Positions 8,688 through 59,295 of a stretch of DNA of 64,000 bases are shown here, piece after piece. The translations under genes and the position numbers were made by a program. A model generated the notes under the pieces. The model was not told the DNA's origin. It did no database searches and saw nothing but the letters and a program-made list of their open reading frames with translations. This DNA is from a virus, in the IMG/VR virus record IMGVR_UViG_3300025164_000635, positions 31,305-95,304 of that record; one strand, 5' to 3'. How positions within the stretch are numbered: position 1 is the first letter of the stretch; each line of letters opens with the position of its first letter.

Positions 8688-8928
8688 GCATTCGCCTCCT
8701 TCCGTTTCGCCGCGAAACGGATCGATTATCCACAGCAGACATCACAATTTGCCCACTATGGCCTAAGCCAAGCGTGTTTCGCCAGGCGACGTGAATCAAC
8801 GGAGTGCGAGTGATGACGCGAATGGTTTTCGTCGAGCCACACTTGCAAACGACCGGCGAAGAATCCTCCATCATCCTCTGTACCTCGAACACGTCCTGAC
8901 ACGCCTGACACTCGTAGTCGTACCTCAC
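8665..8928 (-). CDS. FmdB-family zinc-ribbon protein
   Basis: MRYDYECQACQDVFEV...CKCGS...RVI. Confidence 0.7.
   Translation of the reverse strand: MRYDYECQACQDVFEVQRMMEDSSPVVCKCGSTKTIRVITRTPLIHVAWRNTLGLGHSGQIVMSAVDNRSVSRRNGRRRMHENPISS
8703..8719. repeat. parS-like palindrome copy 1
   Basis: CGTTTCGCCGCGAAACG (extends to 21 bp, 8701-8721). Confidence 0.8.
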
Positions 8929-9278
8929 GTCAAATCTGTCCTTTCCCGGATCGGGGCTTCTGTCCTTGCCAATAGTCGCTGGTTTCGGGCAGGTCCCTGG
9001 AGAAATAGTTTGAATCGCCCGGTTCGGTTAGTGTGCTGTCCAAAACCGACCCGCACGGGCATGTCTCCATCCACCTCGTCATCCCATAGCTCGCCAGGCC
9101 CTTCTGCCCAGACCGAGAAGGTGGGTTGGTCGAGATGCCGGTCGATGACGTGATAGATGGCGCCTCCTGCCGAGGACTCATAGTCAAACTGAGCAGGTCG
9201 GCCATTCTTTTCCCATAAGCCGAAGACGAAATCGTATTCATCGTCACCGGACTTAATCTGGCGTGGTTCGTCAGCCAT
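8925..9278 (-). CDS. Hypothetical protein
   Basis: 117 aa ORF overlapping neighbours in the operon. Confidence 0.55.
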   Translation of the reverse strand: MADEPRQIKSGDDEYDFVFGLWEKNGRPAQFDYESSAGGAIYHVIDRHLDQPTFSVWAEGPGELWDDEVDGDMPVRVGFGQHTNRTGRFKLFLQGPARNQRLLARTEAPIRERTDLT

Positions 9279-9516
9279 TTTGCCTCATCTGGATCAGGGG
9301 CCCTGAGTGTGGCTGTCTCTTCTGCCGGATCTCGCCCAGAAATTGAGCACCTTCTGCAGTGGTGATCTTCTGAAAAGTCCGAAGGGTTTCGACCTGCCTC
9401 TTCAAGGAGTTCAGGTAGAGGCCGCGTTGAATGGGCGGGACCGCATTCACTTTCTTGAGGGCCTCCACGATGTCTTCTCGGCCCCTGACCAGTCCTGGAT
9501 AGAGAACCATGCTCAT
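9271..9516 (-). CDS. Hypothetical protein
   Basis: Start reassigned to ATG 9516 (ATGA overlap, GAGGAG RBS). Confidence 0.55.
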   Translation of the reverse strand: MSMVLYPGLVRGREDIVEALKKVNAVPPIQRGLYLNSLKRQVETLRTFQKITTAEGAQFLGEIRQKRQPHSGPLIQMRQNG

Positions 9517-9713
9517 CTCCTCTTGTGAGACCACTTCCGGGCGTTGGATGCAAAATTCGCCTTCTTGCGAATGGCCGTACTCTTGGCCCTCTTCCCGGCA
9601 GCGATACAGGCGGACGTCACACCGCCGTACCCTTGCCGCTTGCACCAAGCCGTGAAGCTGCCCTCACGCGACTTCTTGATGTGGATACCGCTCCTGCGTT
9701 TTCGCTTAGCCAT
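9513..9713 (-). CDS. Small basic phage protein (IHIKKS..G.FT..C...V.S.CI..GK.....RK.A.FA.NARKW family)
   Basis: Start ATG 9713 after GAGGAGGA RBS; motif recalled from small proteins in phage structural regions. Confidence 0.65.
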   Translation of the reverse strand: MAKRKRRSGIHIKKSREGSFTAWCKRQGYGGVTSACIAAGKRAKSTAIRKKANFASNARKWSHKRR

Positions 9714-10038
9714 CGTCCTCCTCCTCATCCCACTCACCAGGTGGTCTGCCTCTAAAAAGAACCGGTTGGAACTCCAGGTCGTCCCGGGCATGGAAATCGG
9801 CCTGGACGTCTAGATCGACGACATGCACGGTCAGTCGGGCGACCACGGGGCCGGTCACCGGGATGAAGACGGAGGCATCGACCACGGCCAGCTCAATCTC
9901 GGCTTGCCCTGATTCTCCCAAGACGTAGATGTGGGTCTCGTGCCCTGTACCTTGAGACATAATGCGTAGTCGCCCAATACGCTCGGCCTTTTTCTGTACT
10001 TCTTCCCGGCTTTCCAGTCCCACGGACTGTGTGCTCAT
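9706..10038 (-). CDS. Hypothetical protein
   Basis: 110 aa ORF in operon. Confidence 0.55.
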   Translation of the reverse strand: MSTQSVGLESREEVQKKAERIGRLRIMSQGTGHETHIYVLGESGQAEIELAVVDASVFIPVTGPVVARLTVHVVDLDVQADFHARDDLEFQPVLFRGRPPGEWDEEEDDG

Positions 10039-10040
10039 GA

Positions 10041-10205
10041 TCAGGTCGATCCTTTCATTCGCATACGGCCCATGCTCTTTGGCATCTTCATATGTCTTCC
10101 TCTGGTCATCATTGAGTTGCTACTACTCTTCCGGCCACTATAGAAAGAGCCACGAGACCGGGAAGACGAGCGAGAACGATTCTTGGTGTATCGGTGTCCT
10201 GCCAT
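10041..10205 (-). CDS. Small Arg/Ser/Met-rich basic peptide (54 aa)
   Basis: MAGHRYTKNRSRSSSRSRGSFYSGRKSSSNSMMTRGRHMKMPKSMGRMRMKGST; GAGGTG RBS; fills the gap between flanking genes. Confidence 0.55.
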   Translation of the reverse strand: MAGHRYTKNRSRSSSRSRGSFYSGRKSSSNSMMTRGRHMKMPKSMGRMRMKGST

Positions 10206-10210
10206 AGGAA

Positions 10211-10543
10211 TCACCTCTTTCCTCTCACCTCGTACCAGGCGGATAAGGTGTTACCGTCCATGTTGAAAATCCAATAAATACGATAGTCCTTGTTGTGTGC
10301 CAGGCTCTTGACGAGAGGAGTCGTGAGTAATCGTCCTACGGCACTCCCACTCCCCTGCGTGCTGGCCGTCGTCACATCTTTGAATCCGCCACCCGTCACA
10401 TCGTAGACTTTTGCGACAAATGAGGTGGGGTCCTCAAGACCCCAGGAGGCTGGGATGGTGATGGCATAGGCCACCTTGGCCTCGACGCCATGTACCCGTT
10501 TGTCTTCGACAACCTTTCGATAGTCGATGATGGCGGTGGCCAT
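10211..10543 (-). CDS. Putative small structural / fibre-adaptor-like protein
   Basis: 110 aa all-beta, next to the repeat fibre gene. Confidence 0.45.
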   Translation of the reverse strand: MATAIIDYRKVVEDKRVHGVEAKVAYAITIPASWGLEDPTSFVAKVYDVTGGGFKDVTTASTQGSGSAVGRLLTTPLVKSLAHNKDYRIYWIFNMDGNTLSAWYEVRGKR

Positions 10544-10770
10544 TAGTGTTCCTCTCCTGGTCCGCCCGGCTCTTCTTCCAGAGTGAGCACGGGAACATTT
10601 TCCAGGGTCAGGCCAGGAAGACTAAGTAGAGTCAAAGAAAAGGTCAGACTGGCTAGGGTTAGTGTCGGCATGTCGTCCAGGGTCAAGAAAACTGTCTCGT
10701 TGAACTCACTGCCCGGTGGAAAATAGCCATTCGGAAAATAACTGGCTGGAAATAACAGATCGGGAAACAT
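10543..10770 (-). CDS. Hypothetical protein (FP..YFP..YFP N-terminus)
   Basis: 75 aa ORF coupled to neighbours. Confidence 0.55.
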   Translation of the reverse strand: MFPDLLFPASYFPNGYFPPGSEFNETVFLTLDDMPTLTLASLTFSLTLLSLPGLTLENVPVLTLEEEPGGPGEEH

Positions 10771-10773
10771 GGG

Positions 10774-12435
10774 TCACGTGAGATCATAGGTAATGGTCAG
10801 GCGATTCCCGTCCGCGTCCACGGTGGCCGAGATACGATTCTTGCTATCGGCCACCGCATTGCGGAAGATGGGACTGAGACCTGGTAGGCCGGAGAGCTTC
10901 CCGGCCAGGGCTGCGGCCATGATCGCCACAGCCTGTCGAAACGTCAGGCCCACCTCAATTGCATCTACCCGATCCAGCAGGGCGTCTGCGACCGCGTTCC
11001 TCTCTGCGACCGTCAGGGCAACTCCATCGGTTCCGGTATCGGCCAAGATAGATTGCGCGGTACTCTCCAGTGCTGCGGCCCCGGCCGATAGGTTATCGAG
11101 ATAGCCGGCTCGTAAGGCAGTCAGCCTTCCTTCCAGGTCGTCCACCTTTGATTCAATATCGGCCAGGTCTGCCGAAACAGAAGCACCGGTCGGCGTCCCT
11201 ACCTTAGTCTGGAGATCGTCTGTGTCGGCCAAAACGGATTGAGCGGTGCTTTCCAGAGCTGTAGCGCCCGCTGACAAGTTGTCCAGATAGCCGGCACGTA
11301 GTTCAGTGAGTCGGCCCTCCAGGTCATCTACCTTGCTCTCGATGTCAGCCAGGTCCGCCGAGAAGGATGTCCCAACTGGCGTCCCGAGCTTTGTCTGAAG
11401 ATCATCGGTGTCGGCCTGGATACTCACGGCGGTACTCTCCAGGGCGACTGCACCGCCCGACAGATTGTCCAGGTAGCCGGCCCGCAAGTCAGTTAATCGC
11501 CCTTCCAGGTCATCGACTTTCGACTCGATGTCGGCTAAGTCTGCCGAGAAGGAAATGCCCGTTGGCGTCCCTAGCTTGGTCTGAAGATCGTCCGTGTCGG
11601 CCAGAATTTCTGTGGCGGTACTTTGTAGCGCCACAGCACCACCTGACAGGTTATCCAAGTAAGCCGCGCGCACGGCGGTCAATCGTCCCTCCAGATCATC
11701 GGTCGCCGTCACGATAGACTGAGCCGTAGCTTCCAGTGCGACTGCCCCGGCTGATAGATTATCCAGGTAGCCAGCGCGCAGTGTGGTCAACCGTCCTTCC
11801 AGGTCATCTACTTTTGATTCGATGTCGGCTAAGTCTGCCGAGAAGGAACCTCCTGTGGGCGTTCCGATCTTGGCCTGGATGTCGTCCGTGTCGGCCAAGA
11901 TGGATTGAGCGGTGCTCTCCAGGGTCACTGCGCCCGCCGAGAGGTTATCCAGGTAGCCAGCGCGAGTGTCCGTAAGCCTCCCTTCCAGGTCATCGACTTT
12001 GCCCTCGACGTCTGCAATGTCGGCGGCCACAGAAACGCCCGTGGGCGTGCCAATCTTGGTCTGGAGATCGTCTGTGTCAGCTTGCACAGTAGCGAGTGCC
12101 GCGGCTGTGGAGAGAGCATCGATCTGATTGGTGCTCGTCTGAATGTTGACGCTTAGATCACACCATTCATTCCCAGCTACATCACTGAATGTGATATTTA
12201 TGTTGTCGGCGTTCATCTCTGAGGCCGACAACGTGACCTTGACCATCGTTCCGCTCGCGGGGGTAACGACTGGTAGTGTGGCTAGGTTGTTAAAGGGCCC
12301 TCCATCCAGGCTTACCTTGACATCGCCCGCCGCCAAGGTTGGATTCACCTGGAAGAGCTTCGTGTTAAATTGGCTAGTGAGACCAATGTAAAAGATGAAC
12401 TCTGTATTCTTCTTGGGCGGCAAATAGGAGGCCAT
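10774..12435 (-). CDS. Fibre-like virion protein with 62-aa tandem repeats
   Basis: Five full plus one partial copy of DTDDLQTKxGTPTG...DDLEGRLTxxRAGYLDNLSAGA...; 186-nt DNA period. Confidence 0.65.
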   Translation of the reverse strand: MASYLPPKKNTEFIFYIGLTSQFNTKLFQVNPTLAAGDVKVSLDGGPFNNLATLPVVTPASGTMVKVTLSASEMNADNINITFSDVAGNEWCDLSVNIQTSTNQIDALSTAAALATVQADTDDLQTKIGTPTGVSVAADIADVEGKVDDLEGRLTDTRAGYLDNLSAGAVTLESTAQSILADTDDIQAKIGTPTGGSFSADLADIESKVDDLEGRLTTLRAGYLDNLSAGAVALEATAQSIVTATDDLEGRLTAVRAAYLDNLSGGAVALQSTATEILADTDDLQTKLGTPTGISFSADLADIESKVDDLEGRLTDLRAGYLDNLSGGAVALESTAVSIQADTDDLQTKLGTPVGTSFSADLADIESKVDDLEGRLTELRAGYLDNLSAGATALESTAQSVLADTDDLQTKVGTPTGASVSADLADIESKVDDLEGRLTALRAGYLDNLSAGAAALESTAQSILADTGTDGVALTVAERNAVADALLDRVDAIEVGLTFRQAVAIMAAALAGKLSGLPGLSPIFRNAVADSKNRISATVDADGNRLTITYDLT

Positions 12436-12438
12436 CGA

Positions 12439-12768
12439 TCATCCTGGTTGATAGATCGTAATGGAGTCGTTCACATTCATGAGGTCAGCCCCGCCTGGGC
12501 CAACCTTTTTCTTGCCGCCTCCTCCACTGCCTCCCTTGTCCTTCGTCTTCTTGCCCTGCCCCATCGGGCCTAATTCAAGCATGACCATTAGAGTTGACAG
12601 TTGTCGTTTTCGGGGCTCTTGAATCTCGACATTGACACCGGTCTGGGTAGTACGCCGACTGGCGGGCTCTTGAATCTCGACATTGACACCGGTCTGGGTA
12701 GTACGCCGACTGGCGGGCTCTTGAACCTCAACATCGACATCAACTTGGGTAATACGTCTCGTGCTCAT
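12439..12768 (-). CDS. Small protein with 17-aa tandem repeats
   Basis: RRTTQTGVNVEIQEPAS x3; two near-identical 51-nt DNA units around 12612-12725. Confidence 0.55.
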   Translation of the reverse strand: MSTRRITQVDVDVEVQEPASRRTTQTGVNVEIQEPASRRTTQTGVNVEIQEPRKRQLSTLMVMLELGPMGQGKKTKDKGGSGGGGKKKVGPGGADLMNVNDSITIYQPG

Positions 12769-26836: not shown

Positions 26837-26875
26837 CGTCTTCTAAACGTTTCGCCGCGAAACGTTTAGAAGACG
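26837..26875. repeat. 39-bp palindrome containing parS-like copy 2 (26848-26864)
   Basis: CGTCTTCTAAACGTTTCGC-C-GCGAAACGTTTAGAAGACG, perfect 19-bp arms. Confidence 0.85.
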
Positions 26876-26987
26876 AAACGAGTGAAGTAGGGAAGCTGAA
26901 CCTGTAAAGAGCCCTGAGTGGCTGCCGCCGATGAAGGAAGGGGGATGGAGAAATCCATTCCCCTTTGCCTTTTGTATGAGGTGAGAC

Positions 26988-28303: not shown

Positions 28304-28335
28304 TTGACAAACTCTTGATTGGGTGTATAATCAAG
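28304..28335 (+). promoter_or_regulatory. Sigma70-type promoter with overlapping inverted-repeat operator
   Basis: TTGACA-16-TATAAT; CTTGATT-N8-AATCAAG spans the -10. Confidence 0.75.
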
Positions 28336-29520: not shown

Positions 29521-29847
29521 ATGGATCCCTCTTCAACAACCATCTTTCTATCCATCATGACCCTCATCACGCTCATGCTGGGCGGCCTGATCGCCGTAGA
29601 CTATTACGATCGGTCCATCGCCCGATCGCGTGACTACGAGGTGAGGAAGCTCATCGTCGCTCCAGACGAAGTGGAGTTCACTGTTTACTTCCAGCGCCGG
29701 GCAGGATTTCGGTGTATCTCTCACACCGAAACCCTACGCGGGAAGAGGGAACTCCTCTTCGAGACGGGCAATATCCCAGAATGGGCCTTTGCTCGGGTGT
29801 CCACCATGCAGAGATACACGACACGACCCAGGAGTGCCCATGCCTGA
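29521..29847 (+). CDS. Membrane-anchored hypothetical protein
   Basis: N-terminal TM, AAAGGAG RBS. Confidence 0.55.
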   Translation: MDPSSTTIFLSIMTLITLMLGGLIAVDYYDRSIARSRDYEVRKLIVAPDEVEFTVYFQRRAGFRCISHTETLRGKRELLFETGNIPEWAFARVSTMQRYTTRPRSAHA

Positions 29848-30559
29848 TGAAGGACAATTGTCCTTCGTAGTTCAAGATGGAACCCACACTGAAAAACCTA
29901 AAAGAGTAATCCGAGAAGTCATTGCCCGAGAGAACGTGACCTGGCGAGCCGATAACATAGGCGTGAAGTCGTTATCAACCCTGGAGCTCTTGTCCCTCGT
30001 CACGGGCGACGCCGAAGCTGCTGCAAACCTACTGGCCAGCAATGACATTGCCGACATGATGAAGATGAGTTGCGCCGAGATGACCAAGACCAAGGGAATC
30101 GGGAGGAAGCGTTCCTACCAGATATTGGCCGCTCTGGAACTGGGACGACGTTCCCTCACCACAGCGCCTATTGAGAGGACACAGATCCGCGCACCCGCCG
30201 ATGCCGGCGACATCTTCATGGCCGACATGCAGAATCTGACCCAGGAAGAACTGCGTGTGATGGTGTTGGACACACGCAATCGAATCCTGGCAGTACCCAC
30301 CATCTACAAGGGATCTCTGAACACAACCTGGATTCGCACAGCCGAAGTATTCAAGCCGTGCATCTCCAGAGACGGGGCCGCCATCATTGTCGCGCACAAT
30401 CATCCAAGCGGTGATCCATCTCCTTCCTCAGAGGACATCAGCCTCACGAAGGAGATCATCAACGCCGGGAAGTTGCTGGACATCGAGGTACTCGATCATC
30501 TCATCATCGGCCATCAGCGTTTCATCTCACTCAGGGAACGCGGCCTGGCCTTTGAATAA
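29840..30559 (+). CDS. radC: RadC-family JAB/MPN domain protein
   Basis: LS..ELL, KGIG...A.LELGRR, QEE.....LD..N, AHNHPSGDPSPSSED, LDHLIIG. Confidence 0.9.
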   Translation: MPDEGQLSFVVQDGTHTEKPKRVIREVIARENVTWRADNIGVKSLSTLELLSLVTGDAEAAANLLASNDIADMMKMSCAEMTKTKGIGRKRSYQILAALELGRRSLTTAPIERTQIRAPADAGDIFMADMQNLTQEELRVMVLDTRNRILAVPTIYKGSLNTTWIRTAEVFKPCISRDGAAIIVAHNHPSGDPSPSSEDISLTKEIINAGKLLDIEVLDHLIIGHQRFISLRERGLAFE

Positions 30560-33677: not shown

Positions 33678-33953
33678 ATGCCTGCCGTCGTTAAGAAAAA
33701 CACCATGAAGATCGTTCTGCAGGGCGAGTTGGAGGGTGAAGCCGAGTTCAACCTACCGAGTGTCCTAGTGCAGGAACTCAGAACGCTCGTCACGATGGCC
33801 CAGTTCAAAAGCAAGATCGACACCAACCCTGCCTCAGTAGCAGGCATTCTCATCTCTCTTGGGATTGATGTTGCACTTGGTGAGTATGCCAGGCACCAAC
33901 TCAGGGCCAGGAAGGAAGAGATTGCTTCCCTACTAGCCAGAGAGGCAAAGTGA
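33678..33953 (+). CDS. Hypothetical protein
   Basis: 91 aa in operon. Confidence 0.55.
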   Translation: MPAVVKKNTMKIVLQGELEGEAEFNLPSVLVQELRTLVTMAQFKSKIDTNPASVAGILISLGIDVALGEYARHQLRARKEEIASLLAREAK

Positions 33954-34894
33954 TCGCCGTCGTCAACGCTCGTGACTGGAAGCAGGATGGGGAGTACATC
34001 GGGTGGGCCAACCAGCCCCGCTTCCCGGTATCCTCACCGCTTGCCAATCCCTTTCTGGGCTTGCTCAAACGAGGGATAAGCCGGGAAGATGTGGTTGCCC
34101 GCTACCGCGGCTGGCTGAGAAATCAGTACCGCGTGAATGGGCCAGCCAAGCGAGAGTTGCTACGCCTATCGCACAAGCATAAGGCGGGTGAGAACATTGT
34201 CCTCGTCTGCTGGTGTAAGCCCGATCCATGTCACGGTGATGTCGTTGCCGAGGCCATAGCAGGCATTGAGAAAACTCTGAAAGTGTCAACTACCACGACA
34301 GAAGAACCCAAATATCCATCCTACACTTTGTCAAACGAGTCTGCCATGGTCAGGGTGGTGGGAGCCACCTACGATCCTGGAACACAGACCCTCGTGGCAG
34401 CCCAGATCGTGACCAATGCGAAAGAACTACAGGTGGCTGTCCGAGCAAGTCTGTCGGTGAACAGGAAGAACAGCTTTCTATATCTCAATGGCCCGGCCAT
34501 GCATGTCGAGCTTCTTGGCGCTCGAAGGGGCTACCAAGTCATCACCGCCAACCTGGAAGCCAAAACAGGGGCGCAAGGACTGACCAGCTTCCTGCTTCAT
34601 CCAGGCGCGGGCAATCCGGCCGGTCTGGAAAATTTCTATGTCGTCTCTATGGAGCACGAGGACCCTGTTCGGAAATTTATCCAGCGCCTAGCTCTGGCAA
34701 CTCCCTGGGGCTACCTGGATGAGTGGGGCAGTGCTCTTTACGAGCACGGCTTACATGAAGGGCTGATTGAGAGTCTGCCCGTGGTCGGTGTCTCGGACAT
34801 CAGGAACGCCATCCGGGTAAGCTCTAGCACAGATGCTTGGAGAGACATCATTCGACTTGCACTCTATTCCGGCGAGATCACGCTCGCCGGTTAA
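33950..34894 (+). CDS. DUF4326-like N-terminal domain fused to an unknown domain
   Basis: YIG...SPLANPF...R..V...Y..WL...L.CWCKP.PCHGDV. Confidence 0.7.
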   Translation: MIAVVNARDWKQDGEYIGWANQPRFPVSSPLANPFLGLLKRGISREDVVARYRGWLRNQYRVNGPAKRELLRLSHKHKAGENIVLVCWCKPDPCHGDVVAEAIAGIEKTLKVSTTTTEEPKYPSYTLSNESAMVRVVGATYDPGTQTLVAAQIVTNAKELQVAVRASLSVNRKNSFLYLNGPAMHVELLGARRGYQVITANLEAKTGAQGLTSFLLHPGAGNPAGLENFYVVSMEHEDPVRKFIQRLALATPWGYLDEWGSALYEHGLHEGLIESLPVVGVSDIRNAIRVSSSTDAWRDIIRLALYSGEITLAG

Positions 34895-34902
34895 GGAACT
34901 CA

Positions 34903-37900
34903 ATGGCACGTTTGGAATCACAGAGCAAACTGTTGTACTACCCCACTGAGCCAGCCATCATTGAGATGATTGCTTCCTGGTTTACGGTCAAGACACCGAT
35001 TCGCCTGGTTGATCCGGCCTGCGGTATGGGCGCCGCCCTGCGGCAGTTCGCGGACCTTCTCGGCGGATCTGCGGAAACCTGGGGCATCGAGCTCTCCTAC
35101 TCCCGATCGGTCGAGGCTGCTAAGGTACTGGATCGGGTGCTGCCTACCACCTTCTATGGTGTGAGCTGGGCGAGACGCTCTGTCTCTCTGGCGTTCAACA
35201 ATCCACCTTACGACTGGTCGGAGACACGGGACGAGTCCGGGAAGAGGTTGCGGCACGAGTACCTCTTCGTCACTAAGACGACCGACAAGATCATCGCAGG
35301 CGGCCATCAGGTGATTCTCATTGGGCAGAGTCAGATGGAAGAACGACTGGCCCGTCACCTGGCCGGCTGGTATGAATCCTTCCAGGTATTCAAGTCGGGC
35401 GAGGACTATGAGAAATTCGGTCAGATTGTGATCCTGGCCTGCAATCGGGGAGCGGCCTATGTCCATCCGGGGAGCAAGGCCATTCAGGAACTCACCTGCC
35501 TGACCGATGACCACCTGATCATGGGATGGGGGAAACAGGAAGAGTCTTATACCGATGAAGAGACTGGTGAGGAGAAGACACGCAAGGTGGAAGTGCCGGT
35601 CTTCACCGACATCCCGCCCATGCGTGCTCGCCAGGAAGATGAGCCTGCCTGGGTCATCCCTTCCCGGCCCGATGAGGATCGGTTTAGTTATGCGCCCGTC
35701 TCTCACACCGATATGGTGGATGCCGCCCTGCGCTGTAAACTGACCGCGGCCGAGGAGTTTCGGAAAGTGACTCATGTCAAGCCGGTCGGCTCTCCCTTCC
35801 AGACAGCCGTGCCGCCCAAGATTGGGCACGTGAGTATGCTTCTCGGTGCGGGCGAGATTGGAACACTCCCGATCATATTGCCCGATGGGCGCCGAATGCT
35901 ATTGCGTGGTCTGTCCCAGAAACAGAAGGTGCAGACCTCCCTGCCCGTCATGGATAGTAAAGGACAGGTGACCCACTACAACGTGGAGGAACGGGAGAAG
36001 CCTTGCACTGTCATTACCACGATCACGGACAAAGAAATTGAACTGGTGTCCGACATCAACAGTGTGGGCGATCTCATCACTCGCTATGCCGATCCTCTAG
36101 CCTCTGCTATCTTGCAGAGGAATCCGGCCACCTATGGCTTCGACCCCACTGAATCTGAATGGCGTTCCCTGGACGGCGTGGCGGCCCAGCTACCGCCCCT
36201 TCCAGGAAGAGACGAGCGTGGCTTGTTCAACGCCCAGAGACATCTTGCCATCGCCGGGAAGAGAGTACTCCAGCAACATGGCCACCTGATCATCAACGGG
36301 GAAATGGGTATTGGCAAGACGGCTATGGCTGTCTCCATCTTGGTGCTGATGAATAGCACACTGGGGCTGGTGAGGGAGATGAACCAGTGGCCAGCCCTGA
36401 TCTACTGCCCAGGTCATATGGTCGGCAAGTGGCGTCGGGATACGGAAGCCATCGCCAAGCCAGATGAGCCGATTGCCGCGCGGATCATCAGTGATCCCGT
36501 GCGCCGTGGCCGAACCTTCTACCACAATGTGATTCTGCCTCTCATCGAGGAGGCGGAAGGCGAGGTCACCAGCCGGGAAAGGACGCAGGTCGATCCGATA
36601 GCCGACAGCGATTCCGGCGGCCGCTGTAGGCTGACCGTCCGCGTTTCGCCGCGAAACAGGACCCGTCTAGTCAGGGCGCTGGAACAGGCAACCCGTGTGA
36701 CCTTCCGGGCCAAGAGGCGCAACGGTGACTCAGGCAGCCCGAGTGTCAGGCTGACCATGACGACCCAATTCACCATCGATGGCTTCCAGGCACATTACTT
36801 CGATCAGGATGAGTACACCCTGTTCGATTTCGCGTCTGACTGGCAGGCAGGCCGGCTTGGAAAGAGGGCCGTCGCCATCGTTGCGTTTGACCCTGGCAAG
36901 TATGGGGCTGGAGCGGTCCAGATAGTGCCAGAGCACTACTCCTCCAAGATGGGGCCGTCCAAGCATTACACACCCTGGGATAGAACTCAGGATGACAAGG
37001 ATGTCCGGCCCATCCCGGCCCTGTTTGGAGCCGGTGAGGTTCTCAAGGAACGGCTTCTACTGCGCTGGAAGAAAGGCATCACCGTCGTCGATAGTGAGGA
37101 CGGTAAGAGTGCTGTTGAGGAAGAGAGGAAAGTCAGAGCGTTCCAGTGCCCCATATGTGGCTGTCACTACATGGACTGGAACAAGATTCCTGACTTCTGT
37201 GCCGGGAAGGTGGACAAGGGCTACTGGCACTTCGATGAATCTGAGCGGACCGATGGGAAGGAAGGAAAGTGGAAGTGGCAAAAGGTTGAGGGTAAGTGTC
37301 AGACCCCTCTATTTGAGATGTCGAGATGGCGCCGGGAAGGGGTTGCCCGTCTTATCCAGAAGAAATTCAGACATCTGTTCAAGATTTACATCGCCGATGA
37401 AGTGCATAAGGCCCAGGCGGCCCGCACAGACATCGGCGTGGCCGACTCCCGGTTCATTGCCGGCACTCGGTACTCGATTGCTTTGACTGGCACTCTGTTC
37501 GGTGGAACCGCCTCCTCTCTGTTCTATCTGCTCTACCGGAGAAATCCAGAAGTGAGACAGAACTACTCCTATGAGGACGGCCACAGTCTATGGGTCAATC
37601 ACCATGGTTTGTTGAAATACACCTACTCTCAGGACGAAGCACCCCGGCCAGGGGATCGGGGAGCCACGACCAACATCAAGCGTTGGAACTATCGATCCAC
37701 AGAGCTTCCCGGCATCATGCCCTCGGTCATAAGGTTTCTCTTGCCCATCACCTTGTTTGCAAGGATTACCGACCTGGGCTACCAGTTGCCGCCTCTCCAC
37801 GAGCACATTGAGCGTATTCCGATGAGTCCTGAGATGGTGGAAACATACGCTAAAATCACCGGCCCTATGCTCAAGAAGGCGGTGACGATCGCCAAAGAGG

Positions 37901-38949
37901 ACAAGGACCCAGGCTGTTTGTCGATCTGGTTCCGAGCGGCCTGGATGTGGCCGAACGCCGCCTTCCGGGACGCCCACTTCACGCGAGGTGAGTTCGACTG
38001 GAAGTTCAAAGCCTGCCCTGGTATCCTGCCGAAGGAAGCCCGACTCCGTGAGATTGTCCGTGAGAACCGGGAAGCAGGGCGCAAGACCTTGATCTTCGTC
38101 GAGCAGTCCGCGACGAGAGACATCCGGGAAAGGCTGCGAACCGTCATCAGGAACGGACATGACGACGTAGAGATTGCTGTCATCGAGGACAGTGAACTCA
38201 CCGAGAACGAGAACGGGATTGATCTCGATCTGAAGGTATCCCTGCTCAGCGCCGGTGACATGAGTCCAGCCAAGCGGGAGAGATGGATCAAGCTGCACGC
38301 GCCCACGATGAGCGCACTCATCGTGAATCCAAAGCTGGTCGAGACCGGGCTGGATCTCGTTATGTTCAACCACATCGTGTTCTACGAGCTGCCCCTATCC
38401 CTGTACGTCCTATGGCAGGCGCAGAGGCGAGTGTGGCGACTAGGTCAGAAGTCAGACGTCGACGTCACCTTCCTGGTCTACGTCGATGAAACCGGCCATA
38501 GCATGGAGGCTCGTCTGCTGGACTTGATGGGCTTGAAGATGAAGTTCGCCCTGGTGCTGTACGGAGACGAGGCGACCGGCGCCCTCATCTCGATGGATGA
38601 CGATGACCTGGAACGGGAGATCATCCGGGCAGCCCTGGAAGGCAAGAGCTACGCTGACTTGGGAGAAGTGGTGCAAGTGGGTCATATCTTCTCGACCAGC
38701 GAGACGGGAAGAGAGTCGGGTCAGACCGCCATCAGCGCCAGCCCCTTCGGAGAGCCTACGGCCACCTCGGTCAACTTTATGGAGATTGAGGAAGCCCTGG
38801 AGCCCGAGCCGGTGCTCGTTGTGGACGACCCTGAACTAGAAGCCATGACCATCCCGGTTCCAGCCGGGAAGGTGACTGCTCAACTGGATATGTTTGGCGG
38901 CCTGGTGAACATCGGGTCGCTGCCGCGTTCCCGGAAGAGGAAATGGTAA
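34903..38949 (+). CDS. Methyltransferase-SF2/SNF2 helicase fusion (DarB-like)
   Basis: YYPT, DPACGMG, GIEL, NPPY; GEMGIGKT, IADEVH, LTGT, VETGLDL, QAQRRVWRLGQ; 1348 aa. Confidence 0.85.
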   Translation: MARLESQSKLLYYPTEPAIIEMIASWFTVKTPIRLVDPACGMGAALRQFADLLGGSAETWGIELSYSRSVEAAKVLDRVLPTTFYGVSWARRSVSLAFNNPPYDWSETRDESGKRLRHEYLFVTKTTDKIIAGGHQVILIGQSQMEERLARHLAGWYESFQVFKSGEDYEKFGQIVILACNRGAAYVHPGSKAIQELTCLTDDHLIMGWGKQEESYTDEETGEEKTRKVEVPVFTDIPPMRARQEDEPAWVIPSRPDEDRFSYAPVSHTDMVDAALRCKLTAAEEFRKVTHVKPVGSPFQTAVPPKIGHVSMLLGAGEIGTLPIILPDGRRMLLRGLSQKQKVQTSLPVMDSKGQVTHYNVEEREKPCTVITTITDKEIELVSDINSVGDLITRYADPLASAILQRNPATYGFDPTESEWRSLDGVAAQLPPLPGRDERGLFNAQRHLAIAGKRVLQQHGHLIINGEMGIGKTAMAVSILVLMNSTLGLVREMNQWPALIYCPGHMVGKWRRDTEAIAKPDEPIAARIISDPVRRGRTFYHNVILPLIEEAEGEVTSRERTQVDPIADSDSGGRCRLTVRVSPRNRTRLVRALEQATRVTFRAKRRNGDSGSPSVRLTMTTQFTIDGFQAHYFDQDEYTLFDFASDWQAGRLGKRAVAIVAFDPGKYGAGAVQIVPEHYSSKMGPSKHYTPWDRTQDDKDVRPIPALFGAGEVLKERLLLRWKKGITVVDSEDGKSAVEEERKVRAFQCPICGCHYMDWNKIPDFCAGKVDKGYWHFDESERTDGKEGKWKWQKVEGKCQTPLFEMSRWRREGVARLIQKKFRHLFKIYIADEVHKAQAARTDIGVADSRFIAGTRYSIALTGTLFGGTASSLFYLLYRRNPEVRQNYSYEDGHSLWVNHHGLLKYTYSQDEAPRPGDRGATTNIKRWNYRSTELPGIMPSVIRFLLPITLFARITDLGYQLPPLHEHIERIPMSPEMVETYAKITGPMLKKAVTIAKEDKDPGCLSIWFRAAWMWPNAAFRDAHFTRGEFDWKFKACPGILPKEARLREIVRENREAGRKTLIFVEQSATRDIRERLRTVIRNGHDDVEIAVIEDSELTENENGIDLDLKVSLLSAGDMSPAKRERWIKLHAPTMSALIVNPKLVETGLDLVMFNHIVFYELPLSLYVLWQAQRRVWRLGQKSDVDVTFLVYVDETGHSMEARLLDLMGLKMKFALVLYGDEATGALISMDDDDLEREIIRAALEGKSYADLGEVVQVGHIFSTSETGRESGQTAISASPFGEPTATSVNFMEIEEALEPEPVLVVDDPELEAMTIPVPAGKVTAQLDMFGGLVNIGSLPRSRKRKW
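36642..36658. repeat. parS-like palindrome copy 3
   Basis: CGTTTCGCCGCGAAACA inside the helicase gene. Confidence 0.8.
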
Positions 38950-43816: not shown

Positions 43817-44014
43817 ATGACCATGGTTTCCTGCACAAATTGCCGGTATTACCACAGTGATTCGTGGCTCGATACATGGTGGATGCTGTGTACCCACCCT
43901 TCCTGGAAAGATGAGGGCCGAATTTTGCCCAACCGGGAAGACCCCACTACCCCGCCCTGGTGCCCCCTGAACCAGCCGGAGGAAAAACTAACCCTTGACA
44001 ACTATCTTGAATAA
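43817..44014 (+). CDS. Small Cys-rich protein
   Basis: SCTNCRY...C.HP...PPWCPL. Confidence 0.5.
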   Translation: MTMVSCTNCRYYHSDSWLDTWWMLCTHPSWKDEGRILPNREDPTTPPWCPLNQPEEKLTLDNYLE

Positions 44015-44027
44015 GTATACAATCAAG
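43995..44027 (+). promoter_or_regulatory. Sigma70-type promoter with the same operator as 28304
   Basis: TTGACA-17-TACAAT; CTTGAAT-N8-AATCAAG. Confidence 0.75.
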
Positions 44028-47777: not shown

Positions 47778-47814
47778 TTGACAATCTGTGATAAATTGGG
47801 ATAATCTGTGATAT
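47778..47814 (+). promoter_or_regulatory. Sigma70-type promoter overlapped by direct repeats
   Basis: TTGACA-16-GATAAT; AATCTGTGATA twice with 20-nt period. Confidence 0.6.
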
Positions 47815-52182: not shown

Positions 52183-53001
52183 ATGGCTGAGGGTGCATTA
52201 GTCCCCACCGGGGGACGTGGGTGTGGTAACCGAAAAGTAGGCAGTATCTACGCTGAGTGCGGGCTGAGTCCCTTCGGCTCACCCATCGAGAGCTTCTTGT
52301 ACTGTCCACCGGTACGTGTGCCGGCAGACTTCATCGTCAAAGCCCAGGGGATTACCCTCCTGGAAGACCCAACCGATCCCCGTCTGTTCCATATCGTTGA
52401 TCACCTGGGCGTCAACTCCTGGCCGAATGTGGCCGACTGGTTTGAAGAGGCGCGGCGTTTCGGGCTGAGTCACAACATCTCTGGATCGGGTGTTGAGTAC
52501 GCCAAGCTGACACCGGGAAGCCGTATCATGCCTATCCATCCGCACGCCTGGGTACACAACTTCCCAGTCTTTGCCGCAGCCTGGATTCCTGGCCTGAAGC
52601 CGGGCGACAGGCACGCCTACGACTTCTGCCCGAAAGAGATCACTGAGCACAACATCCTCTTCGATGGTCCCCGACCCGAAATGTGCGCCGGCGTGTGGTA
52701 CCAATCTCTTCTCAAGGGTCAGTTCCCGGTCTACGAGGACGAGATGATTGAGCACTGGAAGGCCGAAGTTCCGACCATGCTGGAGACCGCGAAGAGGCTG
52801 GTCATCCGAACGATGCCCTCGTTCGAGTATCAGGGGTTCTGCCCGCCCGATGGCGTGACACCTCAGTTCGAGGCAGCCTTCATCGGAAGCTGGCCGATCA
52901 CTCGCTTGGTGGTCATAAATGACCCGGTGGACGGCAAGCATGAGAAGGCCCTAAAGAGGGCGAGCGAGTCCAGCCTACCGGTGGAGGAGGTCAATGAATA
53001 A
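52183..53001 (+). CDS. Conserved hypothetical protein (RGCG.R..G..Y)
   Basis: AAAGGAG RBS, 272 aa. Confidence 0.65.
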   Translation: MAEGALVPTGGRGCGNRKVGSIYAECGLSPFGSPIESFLYCPPVRVPADFIVKAQGITLLEDPTDPRLFHIVDHLGVNSWPNVADWFEEARRFGLSHNISGSGVEYAKLTPGSRIMPIHPHAWVHNFPVFAAAWIPGLKPGDRHAYDFCPKEITEHNILFDGPRPEMCAGVWYQSLLKGQFPVYEDEMIEHWKAEVPTMLETAKRLVIRTMPSFEYQGFCPPDGVTPQFEAAFIGSWPITRLVVINDPVDGKHEKALKRASESSLPVEEVNE

Positions 53002-53744: not shown

Positions 53745-54629
53745 ATGAGCAAGAAGAAGATAACTGAAGTCGTCGTTGACGAAGATGCAGCAACAACCCA
53801 GCTTGATTTCGCCCTCCTGGAGGCTGCCGAGGCGGCCCTGGAGGGTATCAAGTACACTGCCAAAGACCTCGACATCACACTCTTCCCGGACTCCTATCCG
53901 GGTCGGCGCGTCAGCCCGGAAGAGGTACGGGTGGCTGCAACAGTGGGCATCCTCCAGCCAATCGACCTGGAAGAGGACGACAAGGGCGGTTACATCGTCC
54001 GTGATGGGCATCGCAGGATCATGATGGCGCATGCCGCCGTGAAAGAGTATGACAGCAAGCGATGCCGCAAGATACGGGCGCACATCTACCCCAGTGACGG
54101 GGTGGTGGGCTCCATGCAGACCCTGATCCTCAACAATACACGTTCCAGCAACCCGCTCGCCGAGTTCAGTGCTATCCTTGAGCTTGAGAAGGAAGGCTAC
54201 TCAGACCGGCAGATTGCTGTGGGAACCGGCATGGATACTGTGACGATCAAGAAACGCCGGAAGTTGGCGAAGCTGGACAAGAGGCTCCGAAGGGCGTGGG
54301 CAGCCGGGAAGATGACCAACCTAGGAGCCGAGGTCGTGGCCGCCTGGAGCAAGACCTACCAGGACCGCCTAGCCGAGATGCTGGAAGACGGAGAGCACGA
54401 AAAGATCACGGCGAAAGACCTTGCCGAAGTGAGGACGGAACGCCGGGAAGCCGCAACTGCGTCCCTGCCGACTTCCATGTTCCAGAATGTGCCTACCGGC
54501 ACGGTGGAGTCTTGGGCGGCCGTTTCGCGGCGAAACGTTCAGCGCATCCTGGCTGGCGTCCCCCAGAAGGCCCAGGACGTCCGGGAGGCGCTGGAGGACG
54601 TCCTGGCTACCCTGGAGAGGTATCCATGA
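53745..54629 (+). CDS. parB: ParB/Spo0J-family protein
   Basis: GILQPI...YIVRDGHRR (GxxRxxA-type box), N..R...PL.E, HTH GYSDRQIAVGTGMDTVTIKKR. Confidence 0.8.
   Translation: MSKKKITEVVVDEDAATTQLDFALLEAAEAALEGIKYTAKDLDITLFPDSYPGRRVSPEEVRVAATVGILQPIDLEEDDKGGYIVRDGHRRIMMAHAAVKEYDSKRCRKIRAHIYPSDGVVGSMQTLILNNTRSSNPLAEFSAILELEKEGYSDRQIAVGTGMDTVTIKKRRKLAKLDKRLRRAWAAGKMTNLGAEVVAAWSKTYQDRLAEMLEDGEHEKITAKDLAEVRTERREAATASLPTSMFQNVPTGTVESWAAVSRRNVQRILAGVPQKAQDVREALEDVLATLERYP
54521..54537. repeat. parS-like palindrome copy 5 (inside parB)
   Basis: CGTTTCGCGGCGAAACG. Confidence 0.8.
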
Positions 54630-55297: not shown

Positions 55298-55326
55298 TTG
55301 ACAGCCTTCTCGGAAACCCCTATAAT
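55298..55326 (+). promoter_or_regulatory. Perfect consensus sigma70 promoter
   Basis: TTGACA-17-TATAAT. Confidence 0.8.
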
Positions 55327-55482: not shown

Positions 55483-55504
55483 CGTGCTTGTGAAAGGTGA
55501 AGCA

Positions 55505-55810
55505 ATGCTACAGTTTGCACTCATCACCTACCATCCCTGCGATGACTACTCTCGGCAGTTGTGTCTGCTCCGGGAAGAGTATGACGGCGGCTGGTGGGTG
55601 AAGCACCTAGATGGGAAGACCAACTACTACTTCAACGACCGGCTACGTCCCCTCAGCATCTATCGGCTCACTCGCCGGCGTGAAGTCGAGGCGGCCGCCA
55701 TCATTGGTCAGGATGACGATCTTGCGGCCGTCCGTCTTCTTAGCCAATTCAGCCAAATCCGCGAACGGCGTCGGCTTCCAGGACTCATGCGGGGCAGGGG
55801 CAGCCGGTAA
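55505..55810 (+). CDS. Hypothetical protein (3' end overlaps antisense gene)
   Basis: AAAGGTG RBS. Confidence 0.4.
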   Translation: MLQFALITYHPCDDYSRQLCLLREEYDGGWWVKHLDGKTNYYFNDRLRPLSIYRLTRRREVEAAAIIGQDDDLAAVRLLSQFSQIRERRRLPGLMRGRGSR

Positions 55811-56242
55811 AGCTGCGGGGTCGCGCTCGATGGCCCGCTCACGGGGGGTCATCACCCCCTCGGGCAACATCCGTCCAAAGAAGATCTCGAAGATTCGAGC
55901 GCGCGCAATCTCCGATTCACCGTTATGTAGCATGTCCATCATGGCTGAGAAGACACCATCGGCCTCATCAAGCACTCGACGATTCAGACGAATGCTGGCC
56001 TCGGCCCGGGCTGTGGTCAGGGCAGCCGCCTCCATCTGACGCACCACCTCTAGCTCTCCCACAACTGCCTCTTCGATAGCCTTCACATCCTCTTCGTGCT
56101 CTCGGAGAAGCGCATAGAAGGTACTGCGGCTCATTCCTAGGTTTTCTTCCTGGAAGACCTGGGCAACGCTCTTTCCCTCACCGTGTACCTTCTGGAAGAC
56201 TGTCCAGAGGGAAATCCTGTAAACTTGCAAGTCAGTTCCCAT
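55643..56242 (-). CDS. HTH protein, possible terminase small subunit
   Basis: N-terminal HTH GKSVAQV...GMSRSTFY, long helices; only minus-strand gene in the right arm. Confidence 0.5.
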   Translation of the reverse strand: MGTDLQVYRISLWTVFQKVHGEGKSVAQVFQEENLGMSRSTFYALLREHEEDVKAIEEAVVGELEVVRQMEAAALTTARAEASIRLNRRVLDEADGVFSAMMDMLHNGESEIARARIFEIFFGRMLPEGVMTPRERAIERDPAALPAAPAPHESWKPTPFADLAELAKKTDGRKIVILTNDGGRLDFTPASEPIDAEGT

Positions 56243-56363
56243 ATACCAAGTTTAACACAGATGGGGCCTGCCGGCCTATAGGAGAAATGGAGACATCCCC
56301 GACGCAACCAGGGATGTCTCTTCGAGAGGGAGAACACACACTCATCGCCAGGAGTATTATACT

Positions 56364-56636
56364 ATGAGACTCTACATACTAGGCACTGATTACACCAGCA
56401 CAAAGGTAGATTGGGTAGACCTGGAGAACTTCGCCAACCCCAACGGACACACACTCCTGCTGCTTGATGATCACAACGATCTCGTCGGCTCCCAGCTCTC
56501 TGAAAGATTCCCAGTGGATGTGACAGAGTTCGTCGCGGAGCGCAAACGGGAGGCCGAGTTCTGGTCAGCTATTGATAAGTTATCCTCCGAGAAGGCGATT
56601 GCGCTACTTACCGCCTGGCTCGAGAGGAGCCGGTAG
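56364..56636 (+). CDS. Hypothetical protein
   Basis: AGGAG RBS. Confidence 0.55.
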   Translation: MRLYILGTDYTSTKVDWVDLENFANPNGHTLLLLDDHNDLVGSQLSERFPVDVTEFVAERKREAEFWSAIDKLSSEKAIALLTAWLERSR

Positions 56637-56700
56637 AACGGCTGTTCTTCCTGGTTTGAAACTTGGCCTGAAACTCTAACCGGAAATATCCCAAAGGGGC

Positions 56701-56729
56701 TTGACTTTCCCGGTTTCGTGGGTTACACT
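56701..56729 (+). promoter_or_regulatory. Sigma70-type promoter for the replication operon
   Basis: TTGACT-17-TACACT. Confidence 0.55.
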
Positions 56730-56849
56730 GAAGCCGCGTTTCAGACGCGCGTTCAGTGTAACCCACCCCGGAGCCGGGGAGCACTTAACAGAGTATCTAC
56801 AGAGTGTCCAGGAAGTCCCACTTCCTGGATTGGCTGAGGAGAATTAGCG

Positions 56850-57755
56850 GTGCGAGTGGATCTTCGCCCCCTGGGCGATGATGGTTCAACTGTTGCACAT
56901 TCCCCCTCCCTTGAGGAAATCCGTTCACGTCTACCGACCCTAGAAGAGATCGACGCCAAGATCGAGTCCGGTGAGTGGTCTGACGAAGGCCGTGAACTCA
57001 CCGAGGATGAGAAGGCTCGGGCCAGAGAAGAGAGAGCCGAGAAGCCCATCCGCAACGACCTCGCGGCCAAGGGGGAGCAGGTCATCATTTCACTGCTCAA
57101 GACACAACTCTTCCAGGCCGTCAACGTTCGCAAAGCTCCAACTCGTCTCCAGAACATCTTCAGTCAGGGTCATGTCGTCGGCCAGTTTCGGGAATCGGTC
57201 GACGTCGACGTCCTGTCTGACCGAATCCCACTTCTGGTGAACGGTGACATCCTCTGGCCGGCCCTTCGTTGTGAAGTCAAGTCCATTTCCGGTCCAAGCT
57301 GGCCTCTCAGCAAGCTCTCCCATACCGAAGTTTCCTATCTGGACGACGCTGTTCACGCTAATCAGGCTGCTTGGTTAGCGTTGGTGTGGTTCTCTCAGAC
57401 GGTGACATGCAAATGGTGTGGTCACTTCTTCGTGGCAAAACGATCCAAGAGGGAGGTTTTATGCGTCCAGTGTAAGGGAATGACGTCGGCCCGCAAGACC
57501 AAGCTGGACGCCTACCTGATCCATCTATTCTCGTGGCGCCGGTGGAATCTCGTCTTGGACTTGATGCAAAGCAGGGTAGCGGGCAACTACCAAGGCAAGT
57601 CGATCAGGCTCCAGGAGCATCCCCACCTGGAAGAGTACGCCATTCACAAAGTGAAGGGACGCTGGATCCTGAGTGATAACCACTGGCTCCGAGCACTCCT
57701 ACCGTCTCTGCATGGCCTACAGCCTGAATACGAACAGGTGGAGATGTCGATATGA
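56850..57755 (+). CDS. PD-(D/E)xK nuclease (resolvase-like) with zinc ribbon insert
   Basis: KGEQ, VDVDV, CEVKS; CKWC...CVQC. Confidence 0.6.
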   Translation: MRVDLRPLGDDGSTVAHSPSLEEIRSRLPTLEEIDAKIESGEWSDEGRELTEDEKARAREERAEKPIRNDLAAKGEQVIISLLKTQLFQAVNVRKAPTRLQNIFSQGHVVGQFRESVDVDVLSDRIPLLVNGDILWPALRCEVKSISGPSWPLSKLSHTEVSYLDDAVHANQAAWLALVWFSQTVTCKWCGHFFVAKRSKREVLCVQCKGMTSARKTKLDAYLIHLFSWRRWNLVLDLMQSRVAGNYQGKSIRLQEHPHLEEYAIHKVKGRWILSDNHWLRALLPSLHGLQPEYEQVEMSI

Positions 57756-57934
57756 AGAAGCCCACCGAAAAGCAAGAGGATGGCCCGTTAGCCACCTGGG
57801 CCAAGGAACATGGCTTCCCGGCCCTCACCGATGAGGCACTTAGGGAGGCTACAGAACAACAAGAGGACAAGCGCCTGGCTCACATGGCTCGCTTCGTAAT
57901 CTTCTTTCGTCAGGCGACAAAGAGAGAGAGATGA
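57752..57934 (+). CDS. Hypothetical protein
   Basis: ATGA overlaps. Confidence 0.5.
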   Translation: MKKPTEKQEDGPLATWAKEHGFPALTDEALREATEQQEDKRLAHMARFVIFFRQATKRER

Positions 57935-58818
57935 CCAACACCTCCCTAATAAAAATTCCATCGCCAGATATTCCCGTCATCAGCACGGGCCTGGAAGAAC
58001 TCGCTATCGAGTCGGCACGTGATGCCGCGCTCAGAACACTCGGCCTAAATTCCGAAGAGAACGAGCCACTTGTCCTGACGGCAGAGCAGAACGCCCAGTG
58101 CAACCATTTGGCGCTTCGCAAGATGGTCGTGGCCGAGGGGGTCACTCAGGCAGCGATCATGCGGCTGGCACTCCGTGTCTACGCGAACTCTGAATGGACG
58201 CTACTTGACCTAGAGACCTTCGACCAGTACGTGAACTCTGTACTGACGCACGAGGACGGGGACGGCCCCATCCCGGCCGCCATGCGGAAGTACCGTCACC
58301 TGCTGCGTTCCAGCATACCTGTCCTGCACGCACTGGACATCAATCCCGTCAAGGTTGTCATTCCCGGAGAAAATGGGGATGATCCAGAAAAGGTCGAAGT
58401 CAGGGCGCAGCATTTCATAGACAGACCGAGCCTCTTCCAGGAGATTGACTCGTTGCTCCGAGACGTAGTTCCATCGACCCCGAAGGGACGTGCTCGCATT
58501 AAGAAAGCAGTCACTCTGGCCGTCACTGCCAAGAGCCGGGAAGAACTCAGGCGTCAGCGCTTCCTGGTCAGAAATCCTCAGCCTCCTCCATCCCGATCAA
58601 GAGGACGGATCCAGCTCGTGAGTTTCCTGGAGCCGACCCTGGACGAAAATGGGAATCCTGTCCTTGAGACAGTCAAGAGGCACGGCCTGCCCTGGGAGCG
58701 TCAGCGTGTGGACTCACGGCCTGGTTGGCGTATCACCATCGAAGCGACTGACCAGGAACACCTGGAGTACATCCAAGACGTGCTCAGTACGCGCGTCGAG
58801 TTCGTCGAGGAGAGTTAG
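57931..58818 (+). CDS. Hypothetical protein
   Basis: 295 aa in replication operon. Confidence 0.65.
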   Translation: MTNTSLIKIPSPDIPVISTGLEELAIESARDAALRTLGLNSEENEPLVLTAEQNAQCNHLALRKMVVAEGVTQAAIMRLALRVYANSEWTLLDLETFDQYVNSVLTHEDGDGPIPAAMRKYRHLLRSSIPVLHALDINPVKVVIPGENGDDPEKVEVRAQHFIDRPSLFQEIDSLLRDVVPSTPKGRARIKKAVTLAVTAKSREELRRQRFLVRNPQPPPSRSRGRIQLVSFLEPTLDENGNPVLETVKRHGLPWERQRVDSRPGWRITIEATDQEHLEYIQDVLSTRVEFVEES

Positions 58819-58821
58819 AGA

Positions 58822-59295
58822 ATGCCACAGATTGACGTGCCTACCGGCACACGTGAGATAAGCTGTCCGCAGTGCGCGGCCGCCATTGTGATTTCCAGAC
58901 GGAAGTACGACAATCCGATCTACTGTGAGGCTTGCGGATGCTCACTGCAAATCAGAGATGAGGATACAGGAGACTGGCTGAACCTGTGGTGGGCTCCCCT
59001 GGAGTCTGAGCTTGCCCGCTTCATGGGCAAGACCTTCGGTGTCATACGGTTCCCGTCCGAGGCGATGTCGCTGCGATGGGGACGGTTCGAGAGACGGCAC
59101 GAGGCCGAGAGGATCAAAGCGGCCGCCCATGTGGCCCTGGAGAGGATGTCAGCCCACCCCATGCGAGATCTGTGCTTCTCGACGGTGATCGCTATGATCG
59201 AGAAGCGGGACAGCGTTTCGCCGCGAAACGTTGATGACGCTCAGGACACTGAGGTTGTGGTAGGAATCAATCCTCTCAGGAGCAGGCGATCGTGA
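58822..59295 (+). CDS. Zinc-ribbon protein
   Basis: CPQC...CEAC. Confidence 0.6.
   Translation: MPQIDVPTGTREISCPQCAAAIVISRRKYDNPIYCEACGCSLQIRDEDTGDWLNLWWAPLESELARFMGKTFGVIRFPSEAMSLRWGRFERRHEAERIKAAAHVALERMSAHPMRDLCFSTVIAMIEKRDSVSPRNVDDAQDTEVVVGINPLRSRRS
59214..59230. repeat. parS-like palindrome copy 6
   Basis: CGTTTCGCCGCGAAACG. Confidence 0.8.

Follow-up and report, generated by a model that had tools for sequence, protein, structure and literature searches.

Seven copies of a parS-like palindrome and a ParB-family protein with a co-inherited partner in the genome of an uncultured phage

The stretch of DNA analysed here is a window of 64,000 nucleotides, bases 31305-95304 of the 95,304-bp IMG/VR virus record IMGVR_UViG_3300025164_000635, which belongs to an uncultured phage and has a CheckV completeness of 100%. 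The genome features a short palindrome, GTTTCGCSGCGAAAC, that is repeated at widely separated positions, and a two-gene module that encodes a ParB-family protein and an uncharacterised 272-aa partner. An original prediction, made from the sequence alone, had reported six copies of the palindrome in the window, and an exact search matches all six, the predicted start positions being each one base too low. The count over the full genome, which had been proposed as a check, gives seven exact copies, one of them beyond the window. The sites and the two genes of the module are given below, in window positions unless the genome is named.

Site 1, genome 8298 (beyond the window): within the 3' end of the gene for a 116-aa protein, with the following start codon 31 bp away
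Site 2, 8704: final part of a small gene, 17 bp ahead of the ATG at 8687, whose ribosome-binding site it abuts
Site 3, 26849: intergenic, with a perfect palindrome of 39 bp (26837-26875) centred on it
Site 4, 36643: mid-gene, between the two domains of a 1370-aa methyltransferase-SNF2 helicase
Site 5, 44203: codons 4-8 of a 110-aa open reading frame (ORF) with coding potential
Site 6, 54522: ParB-like gene, in the region that encodes the C-terminal part
Site 7, 59215: final part of the gene for a 157-aa protein, some 70 bp ahead of the next start
Partner gene, 52183-53001: uncharacterised protein of 272 aa
parB, 53745-54629: ParB-family protein

The seven sites are real, non-random and palindromic. 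No match to GTTTCGCSGCGAAAC occurs in 100 dinucleotide shuffles, and within-gene codon shuffling gives an expectation of about 0.003 coding copies of the 15-mer, compared with the six that are observed. The whole genome has no copies with one or two mismatches, and the one match with three mismatches is at chance level. The motif is invariant at 14 of its 15 positions across the seven copies, and the remaining position, the central base, is C in five copies and G in two. These are one site in both orientations, which bears out the original prediction on this point. The choice of C or G at the centre is unrelated to the direction in which the surrounding gene is transcribed, and this independence fits a symmetric double-stranded target that is read by a dimer. 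The base in front of the motif is C in every copy and the base behind it is G in 5/7, so that the conserved unit is effectively a 17-bp palindrome, CGTTTCGC-S-GCGAAACG. The spacing between sites ranges from 4.7 to 31.7 kb and is tightest around parB.

Five of the copies in the window are coding, including one in the 3' part of parB, and the sole non-coding one is the intergenic site 3, all as originally described. The small gene that holds site 2 encodes an FmdB-type zinc ribbon (Pfam, E 3.8e-9). The 39-bp palindrome around site 3 is predicted to form a DNA hairpin of -20.3 kcal/mol (z -6.8), and it could be a primary nucleation site, an origin or a transcription boundary. The surroundings of site 3 are a non-coding gap of roughly 290 bp, and a terminator-like hairpin with a 13-bp stem and a T tract follows the site at 26937-26966. 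The six coding copies in the genome are all read in the frame GTT-TCG-CSG-CGA-AAC, which is the mirror-symmetric one, with the centre of the palindrome at codon position 2. A second, unrelated palindrome of the same genome takes the equivalent mirror-symmetric frame in 12 of its 17 coding copies. The common frame is therefore probably a coding constraint, the easiest fit of a palindrome into a gene, and not a translational signal.

The 53745-54629 product alone has no Pfam match, and it matches the PHROG ParB-like families with an E of 8e-10. An exhaustive HMMER search found 838 homologues at about 35% identity, and 61 of these were aligned to build a family profile. Pfam ParB_N (PF02195) is present in 57 of the 61 aligned homologues and HTH_ParB (PF17762), a helix-turn-helix (HTH) domain, in 38. 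The family profile matches the ParB of Myxococcus xanthus at 1.6e-26, Thermus Spo0J, Noc and Caulobacter ParB at 1e-25 to 1e-22, and KorB at 4e-13, and its alignment with M. xanthus ParB spans the HTH of that protein. The AlphaFold (AF2) model of the phage protein has a predicted local distance difference test score (pLDDT) of 90. The top Foldseek matches of the model are exclusively ParB, Noc and KorB structures, and it aligns to the DNA-binding domains of 1r71 (KorB) and 6s6h (ParB). The product of 53745-54629 is a true member of the ParB family of cytidine triphosphatases (CTPases), with an N-terminal ParB/Srx CTPase fold and a central HTH; the family profile, the Pfam matches of the homologues and the Foldseek results all agree with its original naming as the phage ParB. 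It is the only ParB-family protein in the genome. Profile alignments were used to compare its CTP motifs with box I Q, box II GERR and box III ENxQR. The box I Gln is retained (GILQPI), as are the Asn and Arg of box III (LNNTRSSNP). Box II retains the Arg-Arg pair in DGHRRI, and its catalytic Glu is replaced by His in this protein and by Arg in most of the family.

Four other phage contigs with a ParB homologue were compared by BLAST and have almost no further genes in common with the phage, apart from that of the 272-aa protein at 52183-53001, which adjoins ParB in all four. A search with the family alignment gave 14 IMG/VR loci, and in each of the 14 the partner family lies directly upstream of a ParB-family gene and on the strand of that gene; in the present phage, two small ORFs lie between the partner gene and parB. 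ParB and the uncharacterised 272-aa protein are a strict two-gene module. The partner family features conserved Cys, His and Asp residues, which are possibly metal ligands. The model of the partner is confident (pLDDT 88). No match to its sequence was found in Pfam, PHROG, NCBIfam or the PDB, and a Foldseek search of the PDB gave nothing at E 0.001 or better. The best match in VIA has a Z of 3.4, to SRA domains, and is below significance, so the SRA/PUA-like similarity of the partner is faint and non-significant. The best match in BFVD is an uncharacterised haloarchaeal virus protein (E 0.01), and the protein atlas gave nothing usable. Elsewhere in the window, 29789-30559 encodes a RadC-like JAB-domain protein (Pfam E 6.5e-40), which is among the very few proteins common to G001 and G003, two of the phages with the module.

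The original prediction had remarked that no ParA is visible in the window. Searches for Walker-type ParA ATPases (PF13614, PF01656) extend this to the whole 95-kb genome, which has no match, and no match was found in the 14 other phage records that carry the ParB family, 7 of which are at least 90% complete. The ParA-binding N-terminal motif of ParB proteins is [LFI]G[KR]G[LFI] (PMC12704722), and a regular-expression search found it in none of the 61 family members, the query included. No integrase or resolvase was found in the genome. With no ParA, no ParA-binding motif and no integrase or resolvase, the idea that the sites are a new centromere and the phage a phage-plasmid, put forward in the original prediction, is left without its defining parts. 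Because the partner is linked to ParB in 14/14 loci and those records hold no ParA, this ParB family appears to be dedicated to a partner other than ParA.

The likeliest reading, with chances that are about even, is that the seven palindromes are specific sites where a dimer of the phage's own ParB, an orphan KorB/Noc-like clamp, docks or loads. The phage ParB most likely resembles the plasmid protein KorB more than a chromosome-partition centromere system. One site lies inside parB, where the spacing between sites is tightest, and a single ParB-family protein is available to bind them. The site falls within the operator space of the ParB family, since it matches the KorB operator OB at 11/13 positions and has the arms of parS. 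Perfect, all-or-none copies that are tolerated in ORFs are typical of ParB nucleation sites such as those of parS, OB and N15. The ParB dimer would nucleate at the seven CGTTTCGC-S-GCGAAACG sites, as KorB does on RK2 and Noc does on the Bacillus chromosome. If CTP is still bound, ParB would close into a clamp and slide onto the flanking DNA, and the sliding clamp would need no ParA motor to act across the early/replication half of the genome. The output would probably be gene regulation, or delivery or activation of the co-inherited partner at 52183-53001, and is probably not plasmid-style segregation. A bolder and rather unlikely version is that ParB, once loaded at the seven palindromes, spreads along the phage chromosome and delivers or activates its obligatory 272-aa partner, which would make the module a site-nucleated DNA-modifying or DNA-reading system that is undescribed.

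Several observations weigh against ParB loading at these sites. The replacement of the box II Glu by His suggests, from the protein sequence, that CTP hydrolysis may be lost; nucleotide binding by the phage ParB is plausible and hydrolysis is doubtful. The recognition helix of the HTH is TGMDTVTIKKR in the phage protein as against VGKERSTVANA in M. xanthus ParB. With a recognition helix unlike that of canonical ParB, the likeness of the site to parS is not readable as a set of shared base contacts. The interval from -80 to +20 of a start codon holds 4 of the 7 sites and covers 14% of the genome (P about 0.01, with the interval set post hoc), and such proximity would suit an ordinary operator too. 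There is also a second plausible binder, a 116-aa protein with a LexA DNA-binding domain (DBD), whose own gene (genome 8019-8369) hosts site 1.

The other phages weigh in the same direction. Among 13 other genomes with the ParB family (the full module of ParB and partner being confirmed in 12), a dispersed and strongly enriched palindrome is found in only three, and a local cluster in one. In the 80-kb genome of G011, TTGACA-N2-TGTCAA occurs 12 times, for the most part at the borders of genes. G001 holds six copies of GTAGCC-N4-GGCTAC, several of which are followed by a TAGTATA-like (-10-like) element, and G013 holds 8 hairpins with four-base loops, most of the GNRA pattern. In the remaining module phages, the palindromes are near chance expectation or form a local cluster at most. 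G011, G001 and G013 have palindromes that resemble promoter or RNA-hairpin elements, and these do not provide a family-wide rule for a ParB site. Covariation of ParB with a palindrome across the same 13 phages was also tried and gave no consistent rule.

Searches for close relatives of the phage found none in IMG/VR with ParB and TerL queries, and none in JGI metagenomes, isolate phages or plasmids with ParB. An identical ParB is carried by 24 contigs, the longest of 107.8 kb, and a fragment (P0004) has a ParB that is 84% identical. A metagenome scan with the methylase-helicase protein found only homologues of 36-61% identity, on unrelated elements that have neither the motif nor the ParB module. 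The 16-mer form of the palindrome occurs in 20 IMG/VR contigs, with one site each, and no clear ParB-family or partner gene was found beside the site in these 20; one match is marginal (E 3.5e-4).

The best-surviving alternatives are two, both of them improbable. The first is that the palindrome is an operator of the phage protein that consists of a LexA DBD only (genome 8019-8369, 116 aa), or of host LexA, in a conventional repressor network at gene junctions. The phage protein matches PF01726 LexA_DNA_bind with an E of 3e-15 and the NCBIfam model lexA (TIGR00498) with an E of 3.9e-13. LexA boxes are palindromes of 14-16 bp, with GTTC...GAAC arms in some phyla. The location of site 1 in the 3' end of the gene for this very protein, 31 bp ahead of the next start codon, and the four start-proximal sites would be expected of such a network. 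The TIGR00498 match is limited to model positions 8-70, within the DNA-binding domain, and the protein lacks the S24 peptidase/dimerisation domain. The invariance of the seven copies at 14 positions, with no degenerate copies, is unusual for the regulon of a transcription factor, and two of the sites are deep in genes, the methylase-helicase gene and parB. In bacterial genomes, the motif has no shared regulatory setting among the at least 116 loci listed; where flanking genes are shared, they hold it as coding sequence.

A similarly doubtful possibility is that the palindrome acts through another factor or at another level, as an RNA hairpin (6-bp stem and CSG triloop) for translation or processing, as a site acted on by a nuclease, nickase or modification enzyme, or as a signal for replication or recombination. 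Ribosome-binding sites or start codons lie directly beside several copies, the six coding copies share one reading frame, the intergenic copy centres the stable 39-bp palindrome, and the phage encodes four DNA methyltransferases, all of which would be in keeping with such roles. An RNA element is disfavoured by the mRNA-sense centre base, which is C or G without pattern, and by the lack of covariation in the stem, both of which point to symmetric recognition of double-stranded DNA. The common frame, being the mirror-symmetric one that the unrelated palindrome also favours, loses its force as a sign of translation. A site of 15-17 bp far exceeds the target length of a methylase, and a terminator or cleavage function would be harmful for the copies within long genes.

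The original prediction had also suggested that the sites hijack host ParB. The 17-mer in bacterial genomes occurs as one copy per contig among the at least 116 loci listed, and the flanking genes that are common between loci hold the motif inside their own coding sequence, among the matches listed. The largest group, 17 of the at least 116 loci, has the 17-mer in homologous genes that resemble Ser/Thr kinases, where it encodes PFR(G/R)ET. This peptide is conserved in the kinase-like group, and two further groups of shared genes contain the 17-mer as well. The half-site GTTTCGC matches GTTTCAC of the well-established parS consensus at six of seven bases, which agrees with the original description of the motif as parS-like with one added central base, yet recruitment of host chromosomal ParB or SMC machinery is very unlikely, as the added base shifts the spacing and phase of the half-sites, canonical parS with up to three mismatches was not found in the phage, and more than one copy of the 17-mer was found in no bacterial contig among those loci, the copies with recurrent flanks being coding.

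Further features of the genome are listed below.

Genome 3121-5037, 7199-7729 and 9225-10046, and window 34837-38949: DNA methyltransferases (C5-cytosine, Dam-like, D12 N6-adenine and DUF6094)
Genome 5042-5524: PD-(D/E)XK/Hjc-like nuclease
Window 28304-28331, 55298-55326, 43995-44023 and 47778-47805: sigma-70-like promoters, among the six strong matches
Window 3572, 19276, 20973, 36199, 44178, 61176 and 63126: examples of a second odd palindrome, CTTCCNGGAAG, one copy of which lies 25 bp before site 5

The strong sigma-70-like promoter matches number only six in the genome, two of them perfect (12/12) and two at 11/12, and four of the six are at most 1.5 kb from a site in a post-hoc test. Besides these promoter matches, the phage encodes its own RNA polymerases. 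The gene at 33950-34894 and the 1370-aa gene for the DUF6094 methyltransferase-SNF2 helicase are a pair (33950-38949) that is kept in at least 20 unrelated metagenome contigs, with 36-61% identity in the best aligned segment across those contigs. The 95.3-kb genome has 286 occurrences of the octamer CCNGGAAG or its complement, about one per 333 bp, as compared to 42 ± 5 in within-gene codon shuffles, and CCGAGAAG occurs in 72 copies as compared to 10.6. The octamer words are found in both orientations and are strongly locked to the frame C|CNG|GAA|G. CTTCCNGGAAG consists of two overlapping copies of the octamer and is enriched as well, with 18 copies as compared to 0.17 expected from a Markov model or about 0.3 from codon shuffling; this is the unrelated palindrome whose reading frame was described above.

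ParB-type CTP clamps are known mainly as partition proteins, and KorB, Noc and VirB are the studied exceptions. The sites and roles of orphan ParBs on mobile elements are largely uncharted. The phage provides a complete testable set in one small genome, with a 17-bp site in seven copies, a single HTH-containing ParB, no ParA and a co-inherited partner, and the strictly co-inherited partner, of unassigned fold, is found in 15 phage genomes. If ParB does bind the sites, the phage would feature a KorB/Noc-like clamp in a genome without detected lysogeny or plasmid genes, and the role of the partner protein would gain a handle. The site, with its parS-like arms and OB-like odd spacing, would then be a natural data point on the evolution of ParB specificity and of half-site spacing. 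Orphan ParBs are common on mobile elements (PMC12704722).

The closest analogue of the phage site is the KorB operator, which the original prediction missed, together with the partner gene upstream of parB and the rival binder with a LexA DBD. The operator OB of the IncP-1 plasmid RK2 is TTTAGCGGCTAAA (PMC11790492). Both OB and the phage site are odd 13-bp palindromes with an S centre, TTTAGCSGCTAAA in OB and TTTCGCSGCGAAA in the phage core, and are identical at 11/13 positions. OB-like sequences with up to two mismatches are found in the phage genome at the seven sites only. The protein is in both cases a member of the ParB-CTPase family with an HTH, and in both cases multiple near-perfect copies of the site are dispersed around the replicon. 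Some OB copies of RK2 lie within the genes that are controlled, or far from them. OB is where the KorB clamp loads, and from there it slides to distant promoters (PMC11790492, PMC13768133). There are also differences. KorB works with the co-repressors KorA and TrbA and with IncC, which is listed among the ParA homologues (PMC3235114), whereas no ParA was found in the phage. The KorB-specific Pfam domains (KorB, KorB_C) were not detected for the query or among the 17 families matched by the 61 homologues, and the phage ParB family is nearer to chromosomal ParB and Noc (1e-26) than to KorB (4e-13) by profile. For these two reasons, the phage protein would be placed outside the KorB family proper on its sequence. 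The replicon, moreover, is that of a phage without detected lysogeny or plasmid genes, and the obligatory neighbour is the uncharacterised 272-aa protein.

Noc of Bacillus binds a parS-derived palindrome (Noc-binding site, NBS) that is scattered over the chromosome, often inside genes. Like the phage protein, it is a ParB-family CTPase without a ParA, and it has been named as an orphan ParB (PMC12704722). Noc differs in having an N-terminal membrane-targeting helix and acting in division-site selection, and the NBS is an even 14-bp palindrome, with no match in the phage genome at up to two mismatches. The parS site of chromosomal ParABS systems, TGTTTCACGTGAAACA, has GTTTC/GAAAC outer arms that equal those of the phage sites, which have one extra base between the half-sites. 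The sites of ParABS and of N15 SopB are also perfect palindromes that are able to lie inside genes. These systems serve genuine partition and feature a ParA ATPase and a ParA-stimulating N-terminal peptide, neither of which was found here.

The ParB-dependent phage thymine dioxygenases (5mYOX176/ParB176) provide an example of a ParB homologue that is encoded together with, and dedicated to, a DNA-acting partner other than ParA (PMC13229309). The strict linkage of the phage ParB to a non-ParA partner gene, in 14/14 other contigs, is similar. Those ParBs have no obvious DNA-binding domain, whereas the phage ParB has an HTH, and the partner in the phage has no recognisable fold; no Tet_JBP dioxygenase (PF12851) was found in the genome. 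The module, if ParB delivers or activates its partner, would be the DNA-binding counterpart of the ParB-dependent dioxygenases. Dispersed centromere-like sites of the ParB type are documented in PMC3235114 for N15 (after Ravin and Lane 1999), RK2 and pSM19035, and N15 shows that a phage genome can carry such sites. Given these known examples of dispersed sites, the phage system would work most like KorB with OB or Noc with the NBS.

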